Shown here one piece after another: positions 10,174-64,000 of a stretch of 64,000 bases of DNA. Source of the stretch: Escherichia phage T5_ev219. The position numbers and the translations under genes were made by a program. Location: sequence record NC_134263.1; one strand, written 5' to 3'. The notes below the pieces were generated by a model. That model worked only from the letters and a program-made list of their open reading frames with translations. It did no database searches and was not told the DNA's origin. Positions within the stretch are counted from its first letter, which is position 1; each line of letters begins with the position of its first letter.

Positions 10174-10202
10174 TTGCTTTCAGCCAAAAATTTATATATA
10201 AT
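10174..10202 (+). promoter_or_regulatory. T5-type early promoter (TTGCTT-17-TATAAT) with conserved leader ending in GAGGAG
   Basis: Hexamers at 10174-10179 and 10197-10202. Confidence 0.7.
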
Positions 10203-10230
10203 AGATTTATAAATTTGAGAGGAGAAAGCT

Positions 10231-16843: not shown

Positions 16844-16872
16844 TTGCTTTCAGGAAAATTTTTCTGTATAAT
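16844..16872 (+). promoter_or_regulatory. T5-type early promoter (TTGCTT-17-TATAAT) with conserved leader
   Basis: Near-identical to the promoter at 10174-10202, leader included. Confidence 0.7.
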
Positions 16873-16903
16873 AGATTCATAAATTTGAGAGAGGAGTTTA
16901 AAT

Positions 16904-17608
16904 ATGGCTGGTTCTCGCAGAAAGAAACATATCCATGAAATCCCTGATGAAGTCTTTAAAAAAGTTATAGAGCATCTGGAGAACGGTGGTACTAAGAAAG
17001 CAGCATGTGAGATGCTCGGCGTATCATCCAATCCGACTATGGAAAGGATGATAGAAGAGTGGCAAGATCGCCAAATTCAGGTTGCCGAGATGAAGAAAAA
17101 GAAACGTGGTACACTCATTGAAGGTATTGAGTTGGCCAACGTTATTGAACAGTATCTATCTGGTGATTCTTTTGAAGAGATTGCCGATCGTAACTACCGC
17201 TCTGTAGCAATGGTTAAATCTGTTCTAGAACGATATGGTGCTCTACTTCGTTTGAACGATATTGTAGACCCCTTGAATCCTCCAATTATTCCTGACGATG
17301 CTGTAGCAGAAGAATTTGAGGTTGGAGAACTTGTTTGGGTTCCTGGATACCAGTGTATCGGTGAAATCAAAAAAGCAATGGATAACCCTGTTGGTTGTTA
17401 TCGAGTCTGGTTACTATCGGAAGGCAAACAACAGAACGTTCATTATATGAATTACGAGCTGGCTTCTGTTAAACATCTGGAAAAGTTAGGGGTTGACGTA
17501 AAATCTCTGGGGTACAAGTGGACTCGTGAAGAAGTTATTACGTTGATTAACGAAGCTGTTAAGGCTGCCTTGAAACTTGATAAAGAAAAAGGAAAACGCC
17601 GTGAGTAG
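16904..17608 (+). CDS. putative DNA-binding protein with two HTH motifs
   Basis: N-terminal HTH (GGTKKAACEMLGVSSNPTMERMI) and second HTH-like segment; GAGGAG RBS. Confidence 0.55.
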   Translation: MAGSRRKKHIHEIPDEVFKKVIEHLENGGTKKAACEMLGVSSNPTMERMIEEWQDRQIQVAEMKKKKRGTLIEGIELANVIEQYLSGDSFEEIADRNYRSVAMVKSVLERYGALLRLNDIVDPLNPPIIPDDAVAEEFEVGELVWVPGYQCIGEIKKAMDNPVGCYRVWLLSEGKQQNVHYMNYELASVKHLEKLGVDVKSLGYKWTREEVITLINEAVKAALKLDKEKGKRRE

Positions 17609-57032: not shown

Positions 57033-58246
57033 TCTTTATCTCCCTCGGTGGAACCTTGAGGTCTACCACCTTCTTGACCAGATACACCTGTTGCAGAACC
57101 AGCAACGTTAGCAGGAATACGAATCTTATCCATCTGCTCATCATCTAAAGGTTCAAGGTTCAGCTCTAAACGAGCTTCGTTACCAGTCATAATACCATTA
57201 TTAACCAATGAGGTTAAATGTTTAGCCTCAGCTTCTTTATCTGGTGTTAATGCAGCTACTTCCTTAGTATTAGGAGTAATCTTATAACCAAAAAAGAAAG
57301 TAAGAGAACTAGTCAGTTTGTTCAGCATAGGAATGATAGTCATATAATAGAACAATTCGATGTTTGGTCGAATATTCGCATTATTACCACCATCAAGCAG
57401 TACTTGCGGAACTCCAAAGGCTAGACAAATAGATTTATTAAATCCTTCGATGTCTTCCTTAAAGTCTAGATCTTTAAAAGAGGATATTTGGGAGTACGGT
57501 TTAGCTTTCATACCACCATCTAGAATCAGGACAGAAGACTGACCCGTACTAGGATTATAATCGAGTTGTAATTCTTCTTGTTTACGCTCACGCAATTTCT
57601 TGTTCAGGATTTCATCCGTCTCAAGAATAAGACCAATCACGGTTCCGTTATCGAGGAATTTCTCTTTAAAGTTAAGCATCTTAGAACGCTTCTCAAGAGA
57701 ATCAATAACAGTAGCAACACGAGATTGTCCAGAAATTTGAGAATTTGTGCCGCACACGTAACTGTTATCCTTTATAAAGATAATCTCATCTACGCGATAG
57801 TTTATCTGATTATTAAATATAAATTTTTTGATAAACTTATTGGCATCTGCCTCGACCTGCATAAGAGCAGCCGGGACATGGTAAAGCGATGTGCCATCCC
57901 AATAGATGTATGCACAACCTTCAAAAAGTAGGTCAGTGACTACAAGTCTACGGAATGTGCTTATATCCATGAATGGATTAGGTCGTACATTTAAGAGAGT
58001 GTCTAGAGTCTTTGTTTTGACGCCATTAGCGTACGTAACAATATTATATTTATCTCCGACAGTATAAGAACACTCCGCCGCACTATCTATAACCATATTA
58101 GCAGTTCTATTGAGAATCTCAATTTTACTGTAGGCTTGTCCAGTGGTAAAAGGCTTACGGTTAGTGCGATGACTAACTGGTTCCATGTCTCTTATAATAC
58201 GTTGACCCGGATTTAACTTTTCAGTAATCCAGCTTTTTAAACCCAT
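57029..58246 (-). CDS. portal protein
   Basis: 405 aa; position between terminase/endonucleases and head genes. Confidence 0.75.
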   Translation of the reverse strand: MGLKSWITEKLNPGQRIIRDMEPVSHRTNRKPFTTGQAYSKIEILNRTANMVIDSAAECSYTVGDKYNIVTYANGVKTKTLDTLLNVRPNPFMDISTFRRLVVTDLLFEGCAYIYWDGTSLYHVPAALMQVEADANKFIKKFIFNNQINYRVDEIIFIKDNSYVCGTNSQISGQSRVATVIDSLEKRSKMLNFKEKFLDNGTVIGLILETDEILNKKLRERKQEELQLDYNPSTGQSSVLILDGGMKAKPYSQISSFKDLDFKEDIEGFNKSICLAFGVPQVLLDGGNNANIRPNIELFYYMTIIPMLNKLTSSLTFFFGYKITPNTKEVAALTPDKEAEAKHLTSLVNNGIMTGNEARLELNLEPLDDEQMDKIRIPANVAGSATGVSGQEGGRPQGSTEGDKE

Positions 58247-58698
58247 TATAAGAACCTTGCGAATCCTGATTTTATTTCAGTCTTGACTTGTGTCTTTTCT
58301 TGAGGATTCTGTAATTTGTCTTTCTGCTTTTGAACCCACACTTTTTGCTTATTAGCAGAAAATAAAGGAGGTTCTTTCGTGTAAACCTTATGTAATAGTT
58401 GGTGATGGTGCTGGCACAATGTTACCACGTCCCTAACTAACTCATGCTCATATTTCTTGTAGAATGCTTCCCTATTTGAAAGGACGATATTCTCATCAGT
58501 GAAATCCAGCTGGAGTTCTTTAGCAAATTTTTTTATTAGCTGAGATATAGTATGATAGTGATGAAGTTCTAGGTCTTCACTACTACCACATATAGCACAG
58601 CAACCATCCTTACTATACCTAGATTTTATACCATCCCTCATTATGGAAATGGCATCACGTTTGTACTTAGTATTAGTGGCCATACTCCTCCAATCCAA
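58246..58698 (-). CDS. HNH endonuclease
   Basis: Cys/His-rich HNH motif CAICGSSEDLELHHYH...CQHHHQLLH. Confidence 0.65.
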   Translation of the reverse strand: MDWRSMATNTKYKRDAISIMRDGIKSRYSKDGCCAICGSSEDLELHHYHTISQLIKKFAKELQLDFTDENIVLSNREAFYKKYEHELVRDVVTLCQHHHQLLHKVYTKEPPLFSANKQKVWVQKQKDKLQNPQEKTQVKTEIKSGFARFL

Positions 58699-59347
58699 AG
58701 CTACTTAGAAAGATTACTATATCCTCAGGAGCAACATTAAAAAATTCCGTGCTTCCTGTAAAATTAGAAAACCCACAGTTTTTATTATAATATTCTCTGT
58801 GAACTTCCTTTTCTAAATCTAAAGCAGTCTCTCTATCTGGCAGATGATACATGGTGAACAAGTATAGGTCAGAAAATCCAGATTCTCTTTTAACTTCATT
58901 CAACCGTTTCTCAGGGTATAAGCTTATGCCTACTTTAGTACCACTAGAGGAGGACATGATATAGAGGAATCCGCCATTCTCCCATTTAAGAGAACAATAA
59001 GGACATCTCTTACCTTGAGTCAATCCATCTAAGGTAATGAAACAGTCATGCCCATTATTGCAGCGTAGATGTAGTTTTGTTTTAGCATTAGTATAGCTGC
59101 TTAACAGAGTATACCCTATATTAGATATTCTGTTACTAACTTCATCTAACGATATTGTATTATTGGAGCAGTGTGGACAACCTCTCCTCATATGGAGTAT
59201 AGAATGTGGTGTTGCTTCCCAAACGTGTGCTCTCTGGCATTTAAATACTGTTTTTGTACGTTGGTTTACATATTCACCGACAATTTGGATTCCACGATCA
59301 GCTAATCTAATATTTATATCTTTTATTGTTAGCTTTTGTCGACCCAT
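58673..59347 (-). CDS. putative homing endonuclease (zinc-ribbon N-terminus, GIY-YIG-like core)
   Basis: CxxC...CPHCS and CPYCS ribbons; GFLYIM...KVGIS...RLNEVKR resembling GIY-YIG; TAGGAG RBS. Confidence 0.45.
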   Translation of the reverse strand: MGRQKLTIKDINIRLADRGIQIVGEYVNQRTKTVFKCQRAHVWEATPHSILHMRRGCPHCSNNTISLDEVSNRISNIGYTLLSSYTNAKTKLHLRCNNGHDCFITLDGLTQGKRCPYCSLKWENGGFLYIMSSSSGTKVGISLYPEKRLNEVKRESGFSDLYLFTMYHLPDRETALDLEKEVHREYYNKNCGFSNFTGSTEFFNVAPEDIVIFLSSFGLEEYGH

Positions 59348-59518: not shown

Positions 59519-60835
59519 TTATTTACCACGGGAAATAGAGTAAATTCCATAGCGTAGTGCATCACAAAGGTGAGAGTTAGCATCATGACGTGGTTTTTCA
59601 CGCGATAATTTCTCTTCGCCTTCTTGGAAGTCCCACTTATAGTTCTGCAATGCATGGATTAATGAAGAGCATGAAGCATCTACAATAATCTTACCCTGCT
59701 GGAATAGCGCTTGCAAGCATGCTAGACCATCTAGGACAGATTTTTTAGCTGGAGCTGATGCAATTTCATGTTCATAAGCTAAGTCCTGGCGGAACTGGGC
59801 AGCCGCGGAGTCAACGAAGATACGATCTACGTTATAACGATCTATACAGTGCTGAATATACGCAGCATGCTGAGCTGTGGTTTTCTCCGCCTGCTGGTAC
59901 TCTTCTAATACGTAGTAAGTATCCGTATCGTAATGATACTTAATAGTAAGAACTGCTGTAGGATCACGATAACCAACGTCAATACCAAGCAACGTTTCGA
60001 ATGCTTCATCATCTTTAAAGAAGTGACGCATACCTTTGAGGTCTTTAACATGATCGATAGCGTTAAAGGTATCAAAGATCTGACCTTCGAATACAGAGAA
60101 ATCAGCCTCATATTCCTGACGGAAGTAGTTTTTACTAACTGTACGACGTGCTTCTTCGATATCATTCAGATCAGCACGTGGGTTATCACGATATGTACCA
60201 TGAATAGATACCCAGTTAGGTAACGTATCATCAAATCCATAAGCGTAAAACTCTTTAAACCAGTTACCACCACGAGGGGTGGAAATAAATAGAGCCTTAG
60301 AATTAGGTTTATCTAGAGTAGGACGTAACTGAACCCTAAAGGCATCACCACCTACATCGGAAATTGCAGCCTCATCAAAGATGATAAAATCATATGAACG
60401 TCCAACTGCGGAGTCAGCCTGAGCAGCAGAAGCTAGTTTAAACAGAGAACCATTAGCCAACTCTATTTCTTTATCTTTAGCGTTTTCACGTTCGGTTTGT
60501 AGGCCATACTTCTTAATAAGACCACGAATCTGTGACCATCCAATATTAGCCAGTGAATAGTTAGGTGCAACAACAAGCACTTTTACATTAGGTTCCAGCA
60601 ACTTTAGGAACCCAAGTGTATATGCTATAAAGGACTTGCCTACACGGCGTGATACACACGCCGTTACAAAACGATGTCTAGGGTCTTCTAGGGCATTGAT
60701 AATTGCTATTTGAGGGCCGTTAGGTGTAATACCTTCTTGTGCTAGTATTCCTGAAACAGGTAGACGAAAGAAACGTTTATCTATTCCGAAATCAATAACA
60801 TCTACTGTGTTAACGTAGGGTCTTGATACTTCCAT
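59519..60835 (-). CDS. terL: terminase large subunit
   Basis: 438 aa; Walker A-like VSRRVGKS, ATPase + RNase H-like nuclease fold. Confidence 0.9.
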   Translation of the reverse strand: MEVSRPYVNTVDVIDFGIDKRFFRLPVSGILAQEGITPNGPQIAIINALEDPRHRFVTACVSRRVGKSFIAYTLGFLKLLEPNVKVLVVAPNYSLANIGWSQIRGLIKKYGLQTERENAKDKEIELANGSLFKLASAAQADSAVGRSYDFIIFDEAAISDVGGDAFRVQLRPTLDKPNSKALFISTPRGGNWFKEFYAYGFDDTLPNWVSIHGTYRDNPRADLNDIEEARRTVSKNYFRQEYEADFSVFEGQIFDTFNAIDHVKDLKGMRHFFKDDEAFETLLGIDVGYRDPTAVLTIKYHYDTDTYYVLEEYQQAEKTTAQHAAYIQHCIDRYNVDRIFVDSAAAQFRQDLAYEHEIASAPAKKSVLDGLACLQALFQQGKIIVDASCSSLIHALQNYKWDFQEGEEKLSREKPRHDANSHLCDALRYGIYSISRGK

Positions 60836-61317
60836 TATTTCTTACCTCCAGTAGCCAGGGAAGTAATTAAGTCCATGTAGTTTTGATCCCCAGCTCCAGC
60901 AATAATATTATTCTGGATATTGGTCTGATTAGCAGGAGCACGGACGGCAGCTTTAGCTTTTTCTAGCTCCACCATCATTTTCATCTCTTCCATCTTCATT
61001 TTATGTGCCTTCCAGAGAATGTCCATAATATCCTGGTCAGAACCCATGCCAGTTTCTTCTAGCTCTTCTAGCTTACGCTTAATAACTTCATCTAGAACAC
61101 CAAATAAACGATCTCTATTACGGAATCCACTCTCCATAAAAATATCATTTAAGTAGTTTTTAACTTCGCTACGATTCATAATATCTCGGAAAGCAATTTC
61201 AGACATTCCAAGACTACGTGCGGCAGAAGGCACATCACTGCCACACTGTAAATAGGCTTCAATCACATCCATCCCTTCAGGGGACATAAGATCTGGTACT
61301 AATACATCATTTGCCAT
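60835..61317 (-). CDS. terS: terminase small subunit
   Basis: 160 aa with N-terminal HTH; directly upstream of terL. Confidence 0.6.
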
Positions 61318-61327
61318 ATTTCCTCCT

Positions 61328-63085
61328 TTAGGTAAGGCGTTGAACTGTTACTCTTAATCTAGGTAGGAAAACTGCACTACCCAAACTCACGTGCATAACT
61401 ACCCCTAACTCTACATTTCCATTTCCTAAATTTTTAACAGTGTATATAAAACTGTTTCTACTTAGAGCATTGTTAGGTGTATATCTAAAAGCAGATGTAG
61501 TATGAAACGGTACTAGATAGCCCACAGGTAGCGTTAAAATCTGGTGGAATATTGCATCCCCGCCGCTATAGCTATATGCTCTTCTTCCTTGCACTTGAAA
61601 CACACCATTATTCCATGTATTAGCTGGAACACCCGCACAATTAAGATTACCTGATATAACTTCAGTAGTAAGAATTACTGTAGCATTTCCGCCTGGTATA
61701 CCCAGCCCAATAGTTGATAAACCAACGTATCTATCACCCGTTCCTGGGTAGCTGGGAGTAATATCATCTCCCATATAAGAGCTACCTACATTTCCACCAA
61801 AAAGTCGCAGTGGAACTGCTGAGGGTCCCCAAACAACTCCATGCTCGTTACCAATAGTATTATCGTTAGAGTTTACATACCACTGTTTACCTACTCCGAA
61901 CTTATAAATGCTAATCTGTGATTTAGCTCCACCATAGTCTACAGGAGACCACAACCCTCCATTACTAGACCCTACAAGTTCACATCTTGCCGTGGTATCA
62001 CCAAAAACCCCGGTATACGCTGCGTTATTTCCGATGAATTCCATATCTGGCCTATAGCCTAAGTTACCAAAAGCATTCTGGTTAATAAACTTATACCCGG
62101 TATTAGGGAGATTCACCCCTTTAATTATGAAATTAGAAGGAGATATAAGAATATCAGAACCAGTAAAGGGGTTGCCGGAAATACTCATACCACCATTCGA
62201 GTACCTTAAATTAAGAACATACCAAATAACCTTAGTAGGAGTTATATTATACCAATCCTGTATTACTGTAGGGTTGCCAGACTGATTGGCCAGATTAGTA
62301 GTAGATCCCCTACAAACAAATCTGTTCCCGCCGTCGTGGTACATAGTATTTACATTACCTGGGAGCCCTTGCCTAACCCCACCATACCCACGTATATTAG
62401 AATTGCAAACATAAAACCAATCATGCCCTCTATGTGCTGCTCCTAGAGGCGACATCCATCCAGGATCCCAATAGTACGGGTTATTGCCATCTACAGGTAC
62501 TGTGCTACTATTAGTAGGAAAACCTAATTGTGCAAAGGCTTCTGCAACAGTAACACCTACAGGAGCTCCCGCACCGGGCCTAACTATACCGTGGTAGGTA
62601 CTATGTAACGTAGTACCACCTGTGCCACTCCTAGAGATAGATTCTTCGTGCCCTATCGAGGGGTTATAATTATAAGTTCCAGATGCGAGGCTGTTACCAA
62701 ATGCAAATCCACTGGTTTGAGAAACACTAGCAAAAGATCTAAAGGGATCTGCCTGAGTGGCAACTATAGTTTGACCAACTTTACTCTGAGTACCGTTAAG
62801 AAAAGCTCTGTGAGTACCATTAATTTCAATAGCAGTTAGTATAACTCTACCAGGATCATTAGATTTAATATTTATTATATCAGGAGGCATCTGACATACG
62901 AAAAACCCATTCCCGGCATCACCTAATCCTGCCTCATAAGTACCATCAACTAGAACAAATGGCATATCACTATGAAAAATACTATTATTATTTGGACTAT
63001 AGTGACGATTAATGTCACCCCCAGATTCAGTATTTAAAGATAGTACGGTCTTACCATCGCTATACTTTCCAGCGAAAAAACCCAT
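61328..63085 (-). CDS. receptor-binding tail protein (pb5-like)
   Basis: 585 aa Gly-rich beta protein; divergently paired with lipoprotein gene as in T5 oad/llp. Confidence 0.55.
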
Positions 63086-63110
63086 ATAATCTCCTATTAT
63101 AAAAATGTAT

Positions 63111-63139
63111 TTGCTTTCATCTCTCTATTTTGCTATAAT
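63111..63139 (+). promoter_or_regulatory. T5-type early promoter (TTGCTT-17-TATAAT) driving the lipoprotein gene
   Basis: Hexamers at 63111-63116 and 63134-63139 plus conserved leader. Confidence 0.7.
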
Positions 63140-63170
63140 AGATTCATAAATTAGAAATGGAGAGATAAAT

Positions 63171-63437
63171 ATGAAAAAGTTTGTAATTGCACTAGTTGCC
63201 ACAGTTATGTTATCTGGTTGTGCACCTGCTCCCAAACCATTTTGTACGGGATTTGTAAAATCTTTTGGTGGTGCGGGAGAAGAACATTACGGTCTCAAGG
63301 TTCAAAAAGTTCGTATTAAGGGAGATCGCTTTCCAGTAGTACAGCTCCGTACTAAGTTTGGGTGGTGGGATCTCAGTCAGTTTGACCTTAAATATGGTGA
63401 TTGTAAATTTAAACTAGAGCAATCTAATTACTTGTAA
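63171..63437 (+). CDS. llp: lipoprotein, likely lytic-conversion/superinfection-exclusion lipoprotein
   Basis: Signal peptide with lipobox LSGC; 88 aa; divergent from receptor-binding gene. Confidence 0.65.
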   Translation: MKKFVIALVATVMLSGCAPAPKPFCTGFVKSFGGAGEEHYGLKVQKVRIKGDRFPVVQLRTKFGWWDLSQFDLKYGDCKFKLEQSNYL

Positions 63438-63550
63438 TTAGTATAAAGCAAAAAGACATCCAAGTAAACTAAATTTTTTATTTCTTGGACGGTATACTGG
63501 CAGAAAACACTATATAAGAAAAGTAGAAGTCCTTCTAGGAGTTCACAGGC

Positions 63551-63742
63551 ATGTTTGGTTATGCCCAAATTATAAAATATTTCAAAAATCACATTTATAG
63601 GAGCATGAAAGATATGTCAAACAAAAGAAAGAGCAGGCGTGGAGAGGTGTATGATAGCTGGATTAATAGTTTTGGGTTCGGAACTATCCTATTCTTTATT
63701 TTCGTAGGTTTTTGGTTAGCAGCTATGGCGGGGTGGATTTAA
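63551..63742 (+). CDS. small membrane protein (C-terminal TM helix)
   Basis: ORF track; hydrophobic C-terminus ILFFIFVGFWLAAMAGWI. Confidence 0.35.
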   Translation: MFGYAQIIKYFKNHIYRSMKDMSNKRKSRRGEVYDSWINSFGFGTILFFIFVGFWLAAMAGWI

Positions 63743-63849
63743 TGGAATGGGTAATTATTGCATTGCTAGGGGTTGTTGTTATCGGACAATGTATTTTAGA
63801 TAATCACTTAGCTAGAATTGAAACTTTATTACTGGAGAAACGTAAATGA
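63742..63849 (+). CDS. small hydrophobic peptide (35 aa)
   Basis: Self-translated MEWVIIALLGVVVIGQCIL...; TAATG overlap with previous ORF. Confidence 0.3.
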   Translation: MEWVIIALLGVVVIGQCILDNHLARIETLLLEKRK

Positions 63850-64000
63850 TGGAAGTGGCAGCTACATTAACAGTAATATTAGTCTGGGCAACTTTCATTG
63901 TTTCTTATAACGCGTATGTTCGCCTAAAAACTCTAGAAGCTCAAGTAAAACAACAACAATTCGCGCTAGAAAAATTGGTAGAACTCCAACGTTGTGATAG
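63846..64000 (+). CDS. small membrane protein, partial (runs off window end)
   Basis: Self-translated MMEVAATLTVILVWATFIVSYNAYV...; ATGA overlap with previous ORF. Confidence 0.3.
   Translation, partial: MMEVAATLTVILVWATFIVSYNAYVRLKTLEAQVKQQQFALEKLVELQRCD

Follow-up and report, generated by a model that had tools for sequence, protein, structure and literature searches.

A BF23-type receptor-binding protein and lipoprotein gene pair predicted in the T5-like Escherichia phage T5_ev219

A divergent gene pair beside the terminase genes

The window analyzed here is a stretch of 64,000 nucleotides from Escherichia phage T5_ev219 (NC_134263.1). DNA comparisons place it in Tequintavirus, the T5-like phages, with ∼94–96% identity to a large number of sequenced isolates. 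Over its full length, the final 24 kb of the window aligns with several phages at 94–96% identity. The interval 61000–64000, which contains the locus described below, shares 96.2% identity with Escherichia phage JLBYU40 and 93–96% with dozens of other phages.

The open reading frame map places two genes head-to-head, with their 5′ ends facing each other across 85 bp. The gene on the minus strand (61328..63085) opens with an ATG codon and encodes a protein of 585 amino acids, in which glycine is the commonest residue (14.0%). The gene on the plus strand, llp (63171..63437), encodes a lipoprotein precursor of 88 amino acids. A sequence-only reading of the window had proposed a glycine-rich minus-strand protein paired with a small lipoprotein in a divergent, back-to-back arrangement; both genes were recovered with the proposed positions and lengths and the arrangement is divergent, but the term back-to-back does not fit genes that lie head-to-head. 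Family matches mark both frames as genuine genes and not chance open reading frames: the larger protein matches PHROG 4815, ‘receptor binding tail protein’, over residues 1–585 (E=7e-274), and the lipoprotein matches PHROG 1119 (E=9.9e-26). We refer to the two products as the receptor-binding protein (RBP) and Llp.

The RBP gene, a homologue of hrs and oad, lies immediately upstream of the terminase genes on the same strand, close to the right-hand end of the unique region. Directly downstream of it is terS (60835–61317, minus strand; PHROG 3802, E=1e-90), which is adjoined by terL (59519–60835, minus strand), and the portal gene lies further along. The order of the RBP gene, terS and terL is common to T5, BF23, DT571/2, IrisVonRoten and JLBYU40.

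The divergent intergenic region (63086..63170) was aligned with those of BF23, DT571/2, Bas32, JLBYU40, phiR2-01 and T5. It holds the ribosome-binding sites of both genes, AGGAGA for the RBP (63090–63095, minus strand), 4 nt upstream of the ATG, and GGAGAG for llp (63159–63164, plus strand), together with the llp promoter (63111..63139, plus strand). The promoter became apparent on alignment to the BF23 annotation and to the P-N25 promoter of T5. It consists of a −35 hexamer TTGCTT (63111–63116), a 17-nt spacer and a −10 hexamer (63134–63139) within the extended −10 element TGcTATAAT, and both hexamers are identical to those annotated for BF23 llp (DQ097178). A generic sigma-70 scanner did not call the llp promoter, as TTGCTT matches the TTGACA consensus at only three of six positions.

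A 40-nt signature of the form TTGCT-N18-TATAATAGATTCATAAA covers the −35 element, the −10 element and approximately the first ten transcribed bases. The window contains three copies of it (at 10174, 16844 and 63111); shuffled sequences give an expectation of zero. The copy at 16844 is the counterpart of the annotated T5 ‘promoter P-N 25’ and precedes the early D2 helicase gene; the copy at 10174 is the counterpart of another annotated promoter of the T5 early region. This justifies assigning the llp promoter to the early type by sequence class, as the sequence-only reading had proposed, with a core that nearly copies P-N25 of T5.

The receptor-binding protein and its probable receptor

Sequence searches identify the RBP as a full-length homologue of T5 pb5 and a member of the pb5/Oad/Hrs family. 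A tblastn search with the RBP reached 100% query coverage in T5, H8, DT571/2 and phiR2-01, and a phmmer search against PDB chains retrieved the pb5 chains 8a8c_B and 8b14_B (E=3e-51), both from complexes with FhuA. No Pfam family was found for the RBP; its identification comes from PHROGs, BLAST and PDB sequences. The proposal that the locus is a module of the oad/llp type is borne out by this homology and by the RBP gene adjoining terS on its upstream side, as it does in T5.

Within the family, the RBP clusters with the proteins of BtuB-dependent phages and separately from those of the FhuA and FepA types. The BtuB branch also includes EPS7 and most Markadamsvirinae of the BASEL collection. 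It is 98.5% identical to the RBP of JLBYU40 and 98.1% identical to that of IrisVonRoten (Bas32), and identity amounts to 73.3% with DT571/2, 67.8% with BF23 Hrs and 56.8% with phiR2-01. Identity to T5 pb5 is ∼30% by tblastn and 36.5% in a global alignment, identity to H8 is 28%, and the T5, S131, H8 and Gostya9 types as a group reach only 28–31%. The RBP allele is widespread, being present at 95–99% identity in at least 96 phage records.

The length of the protein may serve as a rule of thumb for the BtuB branch. Its members have 595 (BF23), 586 (DT571/2), 587 (phiR2-01) and 585 (IrisVonRoten) amino acids, i.e. 585–595, against 640 for T5 pb5 (FhuA type) and 637 for H8 (FepA type). The sequence-only reading had given a length of approximately 640 amino acids for pb5, which is its exact length, and had taken the shorter RBP as a possible sign of a receptor other than FhuA. 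The placement of the RBP in the BtuB branch points the same way.

The receptors of the phages in this branch are known from published work. According to the BASEL study, the receptors of all its phages were determined experimentally and the cluster in which an RBP falls predicts the receptor; for IrisVonRoten (Bas32), its supplementary table gives BtuB as terminal receptor. The BtuB dependence of DT571/2 has been shown with btuB mutants (PMC4728585), and the literature describes BF23, DT57C/DT571/2 and phiR2-01 as dependent on BtuB. Because the IrisVonRoten RBP is nearly identical to that of the window, and because the similarity extends to the BtuB-dependent DT571/2, BF23 and phiR2-01 (73%, 68% and 57%), the terminal receptor of this phage is most likely BtuB, with BtuB use carried over from its relatives. 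FhuA and FepA were considered as receptors and set aside, on the 28–31% identity to the proteins of those types and on the type of the accompanying Llp.

Divergence from BF23 Hrs is strongest in one part of the RBP. In windows of 30 residues, identity to BF23 Hrs is lowest across the segment ∼91–270, at 30–60%, and the same segment is 53–83% identical to DT571/2. The homology to pb5 detected by phmmer spans the N-terminal ∼117 and the C-terminal ∼260 residues, and residues ∼118–272 have no phmmer alignment to the pb5 chains. In T5 pb5, the loops that insert into the receptor have their tips at residues 115 and 170, and residues 570–590 also take part; the segment ∼91–270 of the RBP includes the region of the pb5 loops L1 and L2. 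The pattern fits a variable receptor-contact region carried on a conserved scaffold. Compared with the Bas32 protein, the RBP has 11 substitutions, of which only four are near the variable segment (271–275).

The divergence has sharp limits in the DNA as well. Identity to BF23 and DT571/2, scored in 100-nt windows, is 92–100% in terS, in the intergenic region and in llp, and 86–99% downstream of llp. It falls to 46–79% only inside the RBP open reading frame, and the transitions coincide with the ends of that frame. Golomidova et al. described a divergent hrs beside a conserved llp in their comparison of DT57C with BF23, located the point of recombination in between the two genes, and explained the tolerance of the swap by the ability of either Hrs allele to bind BtuB (PMC4728585). 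By its sequence, the RBP of the window is a third common hrs allele, of the AKFV33/IrisVonRoten type, beside the BF23 and DT57C types.

The lipoprotein and its relation to T5 Llp

The Llp precursor begins with MKKFVIALVATVMLSG followed by cysteine, so that the predicted signal peptide (residues 1–16) ends in the lipobox LSGC, Cys17 is the predicted lipidation site and the mature protein would have 72 residues. The match to Pfam LPAM_1 scores 24.1 bits, above the cut-off of 20, in agreement with the lipoprotein and lipobox noted in the sequence-only reading. The residue at position +2 is alanine, and two further cysteines are present, Cys25 and Cys78. With no aspartate at +2, and thus no inner-membrane retention signal, Llp is predicted to be sorted to the outer membrane.

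All 88 residues of Llp are identical to the copies in DT571/2, IrisVonRoten (Bas32) and JLBYU40. BF23 Llp differs in a single residue (87/88 identical), the change T11A in the signal peptide, and the mature parts are identical. Llp occurs at ≥95% identity in 179 records, whereas the RBP reaches ≥90% identity in only 103. Llp is thus kept more widely than the RBP allele, which fits a blocker aimed at the receptor and not at the RBP.

The activity of such a protein has been published. Golomidova et al. cloned llp from DT57C, a gene they report as identical with its DT571/2 counterpart, and found that its leaky expression reduced the plating of DT57C, DT571/2 and BF23 by approximately two orders of magnitude and left T5 unaffected (PMC4728585). 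For BF23 Llp, a plating drop by over six orders of magnitude is cited there from Mondigler et al. 2006 (as reported in PMC4728585). On sequence identity, the Llp of the window is a BF23-type receptor-blocking (superinfection-exclusion) lipoprotein, the phenotype being published for the identical DT57C protein. The receptor-blocking role suggested for it in the sequence-only reading is thereby upheld, for a blocker that acts on BF23 and DT57C and not on T5.

The kinship of Llp to the T5 protein of the same name is remote. Identity to T5 Llp (77 amino acids) is 28%. A phmmer search of Llp against PDB chains did not recover T5 Llp and returned only noise at the level of the signal peptide (TrwH, E=0.19), and Golomidova et al. 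described the BF23-type and T5 Llps as lacking homology (PMC4728585). Like the Llp of the window, T5 Llp does match PHROG 1119 over its full length (E=1.1e-19), and hhalign pairs the BF23-type and T5-type Llp profiles over 60 columns with a probability of 90.6% (E=1.3e-6). Cys25 and Cys78 are invariant in four BF23-type Llps and are positioned like the disulphide-forming Cys11 and Cys58 of T5 Llp. This suggests that the Llp of the window is a distant homologue of T5 Llp, visible at the profile level only. At the position of llp, Klebsiella phage IME260 has a small open reading frame that encodes no lipoprotein and falls into another PHROG; it was left out of the T5-type profile.

A single-sequence AlphaFold2 model of Llp had a mean pLDDT of 46.7 and a pTM of 0.34, too poor for a fold search; AlphaFold2 was inaccurate for T5 Llp too, according to the authors of the T5 work (PMC9586334). 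The phmmer searches of PDB sequences found no solved structure of a BtuB-type Hrs or Llp.

Proposed mechanism and relation to known systems

Taken together, the two genes very probably form a host-recognition pair of the BF23 type, in which Hrs binds BtuB and Llp blocks BtuB in infected cells, receptor use and blocking both being transferred from relatives. By analogy with T5 pb5, Hrs would be expressed late and would be located as a monomer at the tip of the central straight tail fibre, where it would bind BtuB, the vitamin B12 transporter of the outer membrane, irreversibly and so lead to DNA ejection; the binding of T5 pb5 to its receptor is irreversible and triggers DNA ejection. The llp gene would be expressed early from its strong P-N25-like sigma-70 promoter, and the precursor, after export and lipidation on Cys17, would reach the inner leaflet of the outer membrane. 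There, Llp may bind BtuB from the periplasmic side and hold it in a conformation to which Hrs is unable to bind. Such a block would both prevent superinfection and spare progeny from loss on cell debris.

The molecular part of this proposal follows T5. In the FhuA–Llp crystal structure, Llp sits on the periplasmic face and binds a non-native conformation of the plug, and the pb5 site is covered by the extracellular loops EL7 and EL8, which turn inward (PMC9586334). For the phage of the window, the location at the tail tip, the periplasmic binding site and the allosteric closure of loops are inferred from the pb5–FhuA and Llp–FhuA complexes. Transfer of the FhuA–Llp mechanism to BtuB is supported because the two Llps share PHROG 1119, a match between their profiles and the cysteine pair, and because Llp is conserved independently of the RBP. 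As there is no pairwise link between this Llp and that of T5, the periplasmic allosteric mechanism at BtuB stands as an analogy whose support lies at the profile level.

The variable segment of the RBP is where a different receptor might be sought. With 30–60% identity to BF23 Hrs and 53–83% to DT571/2 across residues ∼91–270, in the L1/L2 region and with no phmmer alignment to pb5 there, the diverged contacts might recognize FhuA, FepA or another TonB-dependent transporter in place of BtuB. We consider this extremely improbable, since the RBP that is 98.1% identical belongs to the BtuB-using IrisVonRoten, the DT57C allele is equally diverged and still uses BtuB (PMC4728585), the neighbouring Llp is a BtuB-specific blocker and the FhuA and FepA types share only 28–31% identity with the RBP. 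It is also very improbable that Llp is a generic FhuA blocker of the Cor type or that it excludes phages at a step other than the receptor, such as the incoming RBP or DNA entry. The name would allow it: PHROG 1119 and several RefSeq records carry the label ‘Cor superinfection exclusion protein’, and FhuA is the target of the T1 and phi80 Cor proteins (PMC9586334). However, the identical Llp of DT57C leaves T5 unaffected and inhibits both BF23 and DT57C despite their substantially different Hrs proteins (PMC4728585), and the conservation of Llp across records independently of the RBP allele argues for a target on the host side. The Cor name in PHROGs and RefSeq labels a family, and we rejected it as a description of function, given that the identical protein confers no protection against T5 (PMC4728585).

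The benefit of the receptor block, as opposed to its mechanism, may also be read in another way. With the mechanism unchanged, the main gain might be that newly released virions are spared inactivation on BtuB in the debris of lysed cells, with superinfection exclusion as a by-product. Irreversible binding of the pb5 type would make debris a sink for virions, which speaks for this reading; a strong early P-N25-like promoter fits a receptor block soon after infection, yet it does not separate the two benefits. We regard debris protection as the main benefit as possible but doubtful. Whether superinfection exclusion or debris protection prevails, the identity of the module is the same.

The proposed BF23-type pair also offers a tentative view of the mosaic structure. 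At least three strongly diverged hrs cassettes appear to have been swapped precisely at the boundaries of the open reading frame, between flanks and an llp gene that are 92–100% identical. The alleles could engage BtuB through different sets of loops, possibly tracking the variation of BtuB extracellular loops among Enterobacteriaceae or escaping point mutants of btuB, and Llp could be invariant since it targets the conserved periplasmic face. We put this forward with low confidence. The hrs swap itself is already published for DT57C and BF23, and only a functional difference between the alleles would be new.

The module, the receptor class, the Llp phenotype and the mosaic pattern are all published and common. 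Hundreds of sequenced phages carry the module, and the practical value of the present analysis is in annotation. The assignment predicts that btuB mutants would be resistant to this phage and to E colicins as well, and that the phage would exclude other BtuB-dependent T5-like phages and not FhuA- or FepA-dependent ones. Both the receptor and the exclusion predictions may be useful in the design of phage cocktails. How Llp jams BtuB and how the Hrs alleles dock are structural questions of the whole family and not of this window.

Among the closest known systems, hrs/llp of BF23 (DQ097178; Mondigler et al. 2006) has the same gene order, orientation and BtuB receptor class. Its intergenic region, with the annotated −35 and −10 elements, is almost unchanged, the mature Llp is identical, and terS, llp and the small downstream open reading frames are 89–99% identical in DNA. 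The difference lies in Hrs, which has 595 amino acids in BF23 against 585 in the window and is 67.8% identical, with the widest divergence at residues ∼91–270. The module of DT57C/DT571/2 has an Llp that is 100% identical (DT571/2 copy) and shows the same mosaic pattern, as published (PMC4728585); the DT571/2 RBP differs in having 586 amino acids and 73.3% identity, with differences spread along the protein. The RBP allele of the window is shared by IrisVonRoten, JLBYU40, phiAPCEc03, chee24 and AKFV33, in which the RBP is likewise 585 amino acids long and 95–98.5% identical and Llp is 99–100% identical. Alleles of the IrisVonRoten/JLBYU40 type differ from that of the window by 9–11 substitutions in the RBP and ∼4% DNA divergence.

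The oad (pb5)/llp pair of T5 shares the architecture, the genomic position and the divergent arrangement of early and late promoters. Its Llp has a signal peptide with a lipobox, the cysteine pair and the PHROG in common with the Llp of the window. T5 differs from the phage of the window in its receptor, which is FhuA, in a pb5 of 640 amino acids with ∼30–36% identity to the RBP, and in the lack of cross-protection by Llp (PMC4728585).

Replacement of the receptor-binding protein gene

The DNA identity of the receptor-binding protein ORF (61328-63085, minus strand) to its counterparts in the BtuB-dependent phages BF23 and DT571/2 is 46-79%, as against 92-100% in the flanks. The drop is confined exactly to the ORF, and identity to both phages is restored in the intergenic region. 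The allele has been replaced in the manner of a cassette, and the limits of the exchange coincide with the two ends of the ORF.

Variable segment between the portal gene and terL

Two endonuclease-like ORFs lie on the minus strand between the portal gene and terL (58246-59347). The product of the 224-aa ORF carries T5orf172/MUG113 (GIY-YIG-like), CapR and treble-clef zinc-finger domains. The 150-aa ORF contains CxxC and His-rich motifs, and returned no Pfam match. The segment is complete in only 72 of the 440 T5-like records, and its best matches are 99.1-99.3% identical, compared with 94-96% for the late region around it. The segment looks like a homing-endonuclease insert that is present variably.

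Early-promoter copies and small ORFs downstream of llp

The T5 early-promoter signature, TTGCTTTCA...TATAATAGATT[C/T]ATAAA, recurs on the plus strand at 10174-10213 and 16844-16883. The second of these sites is identical, base for base, to the core of P-N25, an annotated T5 promoter, and is located upstream of the D2 helicase homologue (16904-17608). Downstream of llp, the plus strand carries small ORFs that include homologues of T5.159 (63614-63742; PHROG 8596) and T5.160 (63742-63849; PHROG 6369), both annotated in T5 as single-transmembrane proteins, and that extend past 63849. In the record of the close relative JLBYU40 these two ORFs and the next one are named 'receptor blocking protein', 'tail fiber protein' and 'tail assembly protein', labels for which the present sequence analysis gives no support.

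Distribution and position of llp

T5-like llp genes 96.6-98.9% identical to that of T5_ev219 were also found in two records named 'Listeria phage' (OR849067.1 and OR846838.1) and in one named 'Campylobacter phage C13' (MG065692.1). These records are probably contaminated or mislabelled, because Listeria and Campylobacter are unexpected hosts for T5-like phages of enterobacteria. Neither a lipoprotein ORF nor an annotated llp was detected upstream of the receptor-binding protein gene in phage H8 (positions 700-1500 of its locus, L006) or Gostya9 (positions 676-901 of its locus, L011). The receptor-blocking partner may therefore be missing from the FepA-type branch that these two phages represent, or be located elsewhere. 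In Klebsiella phage IME260, the llp position is occupied by an unrelated small ORF (PHROG 37669) that does not encode a lipoprotein.
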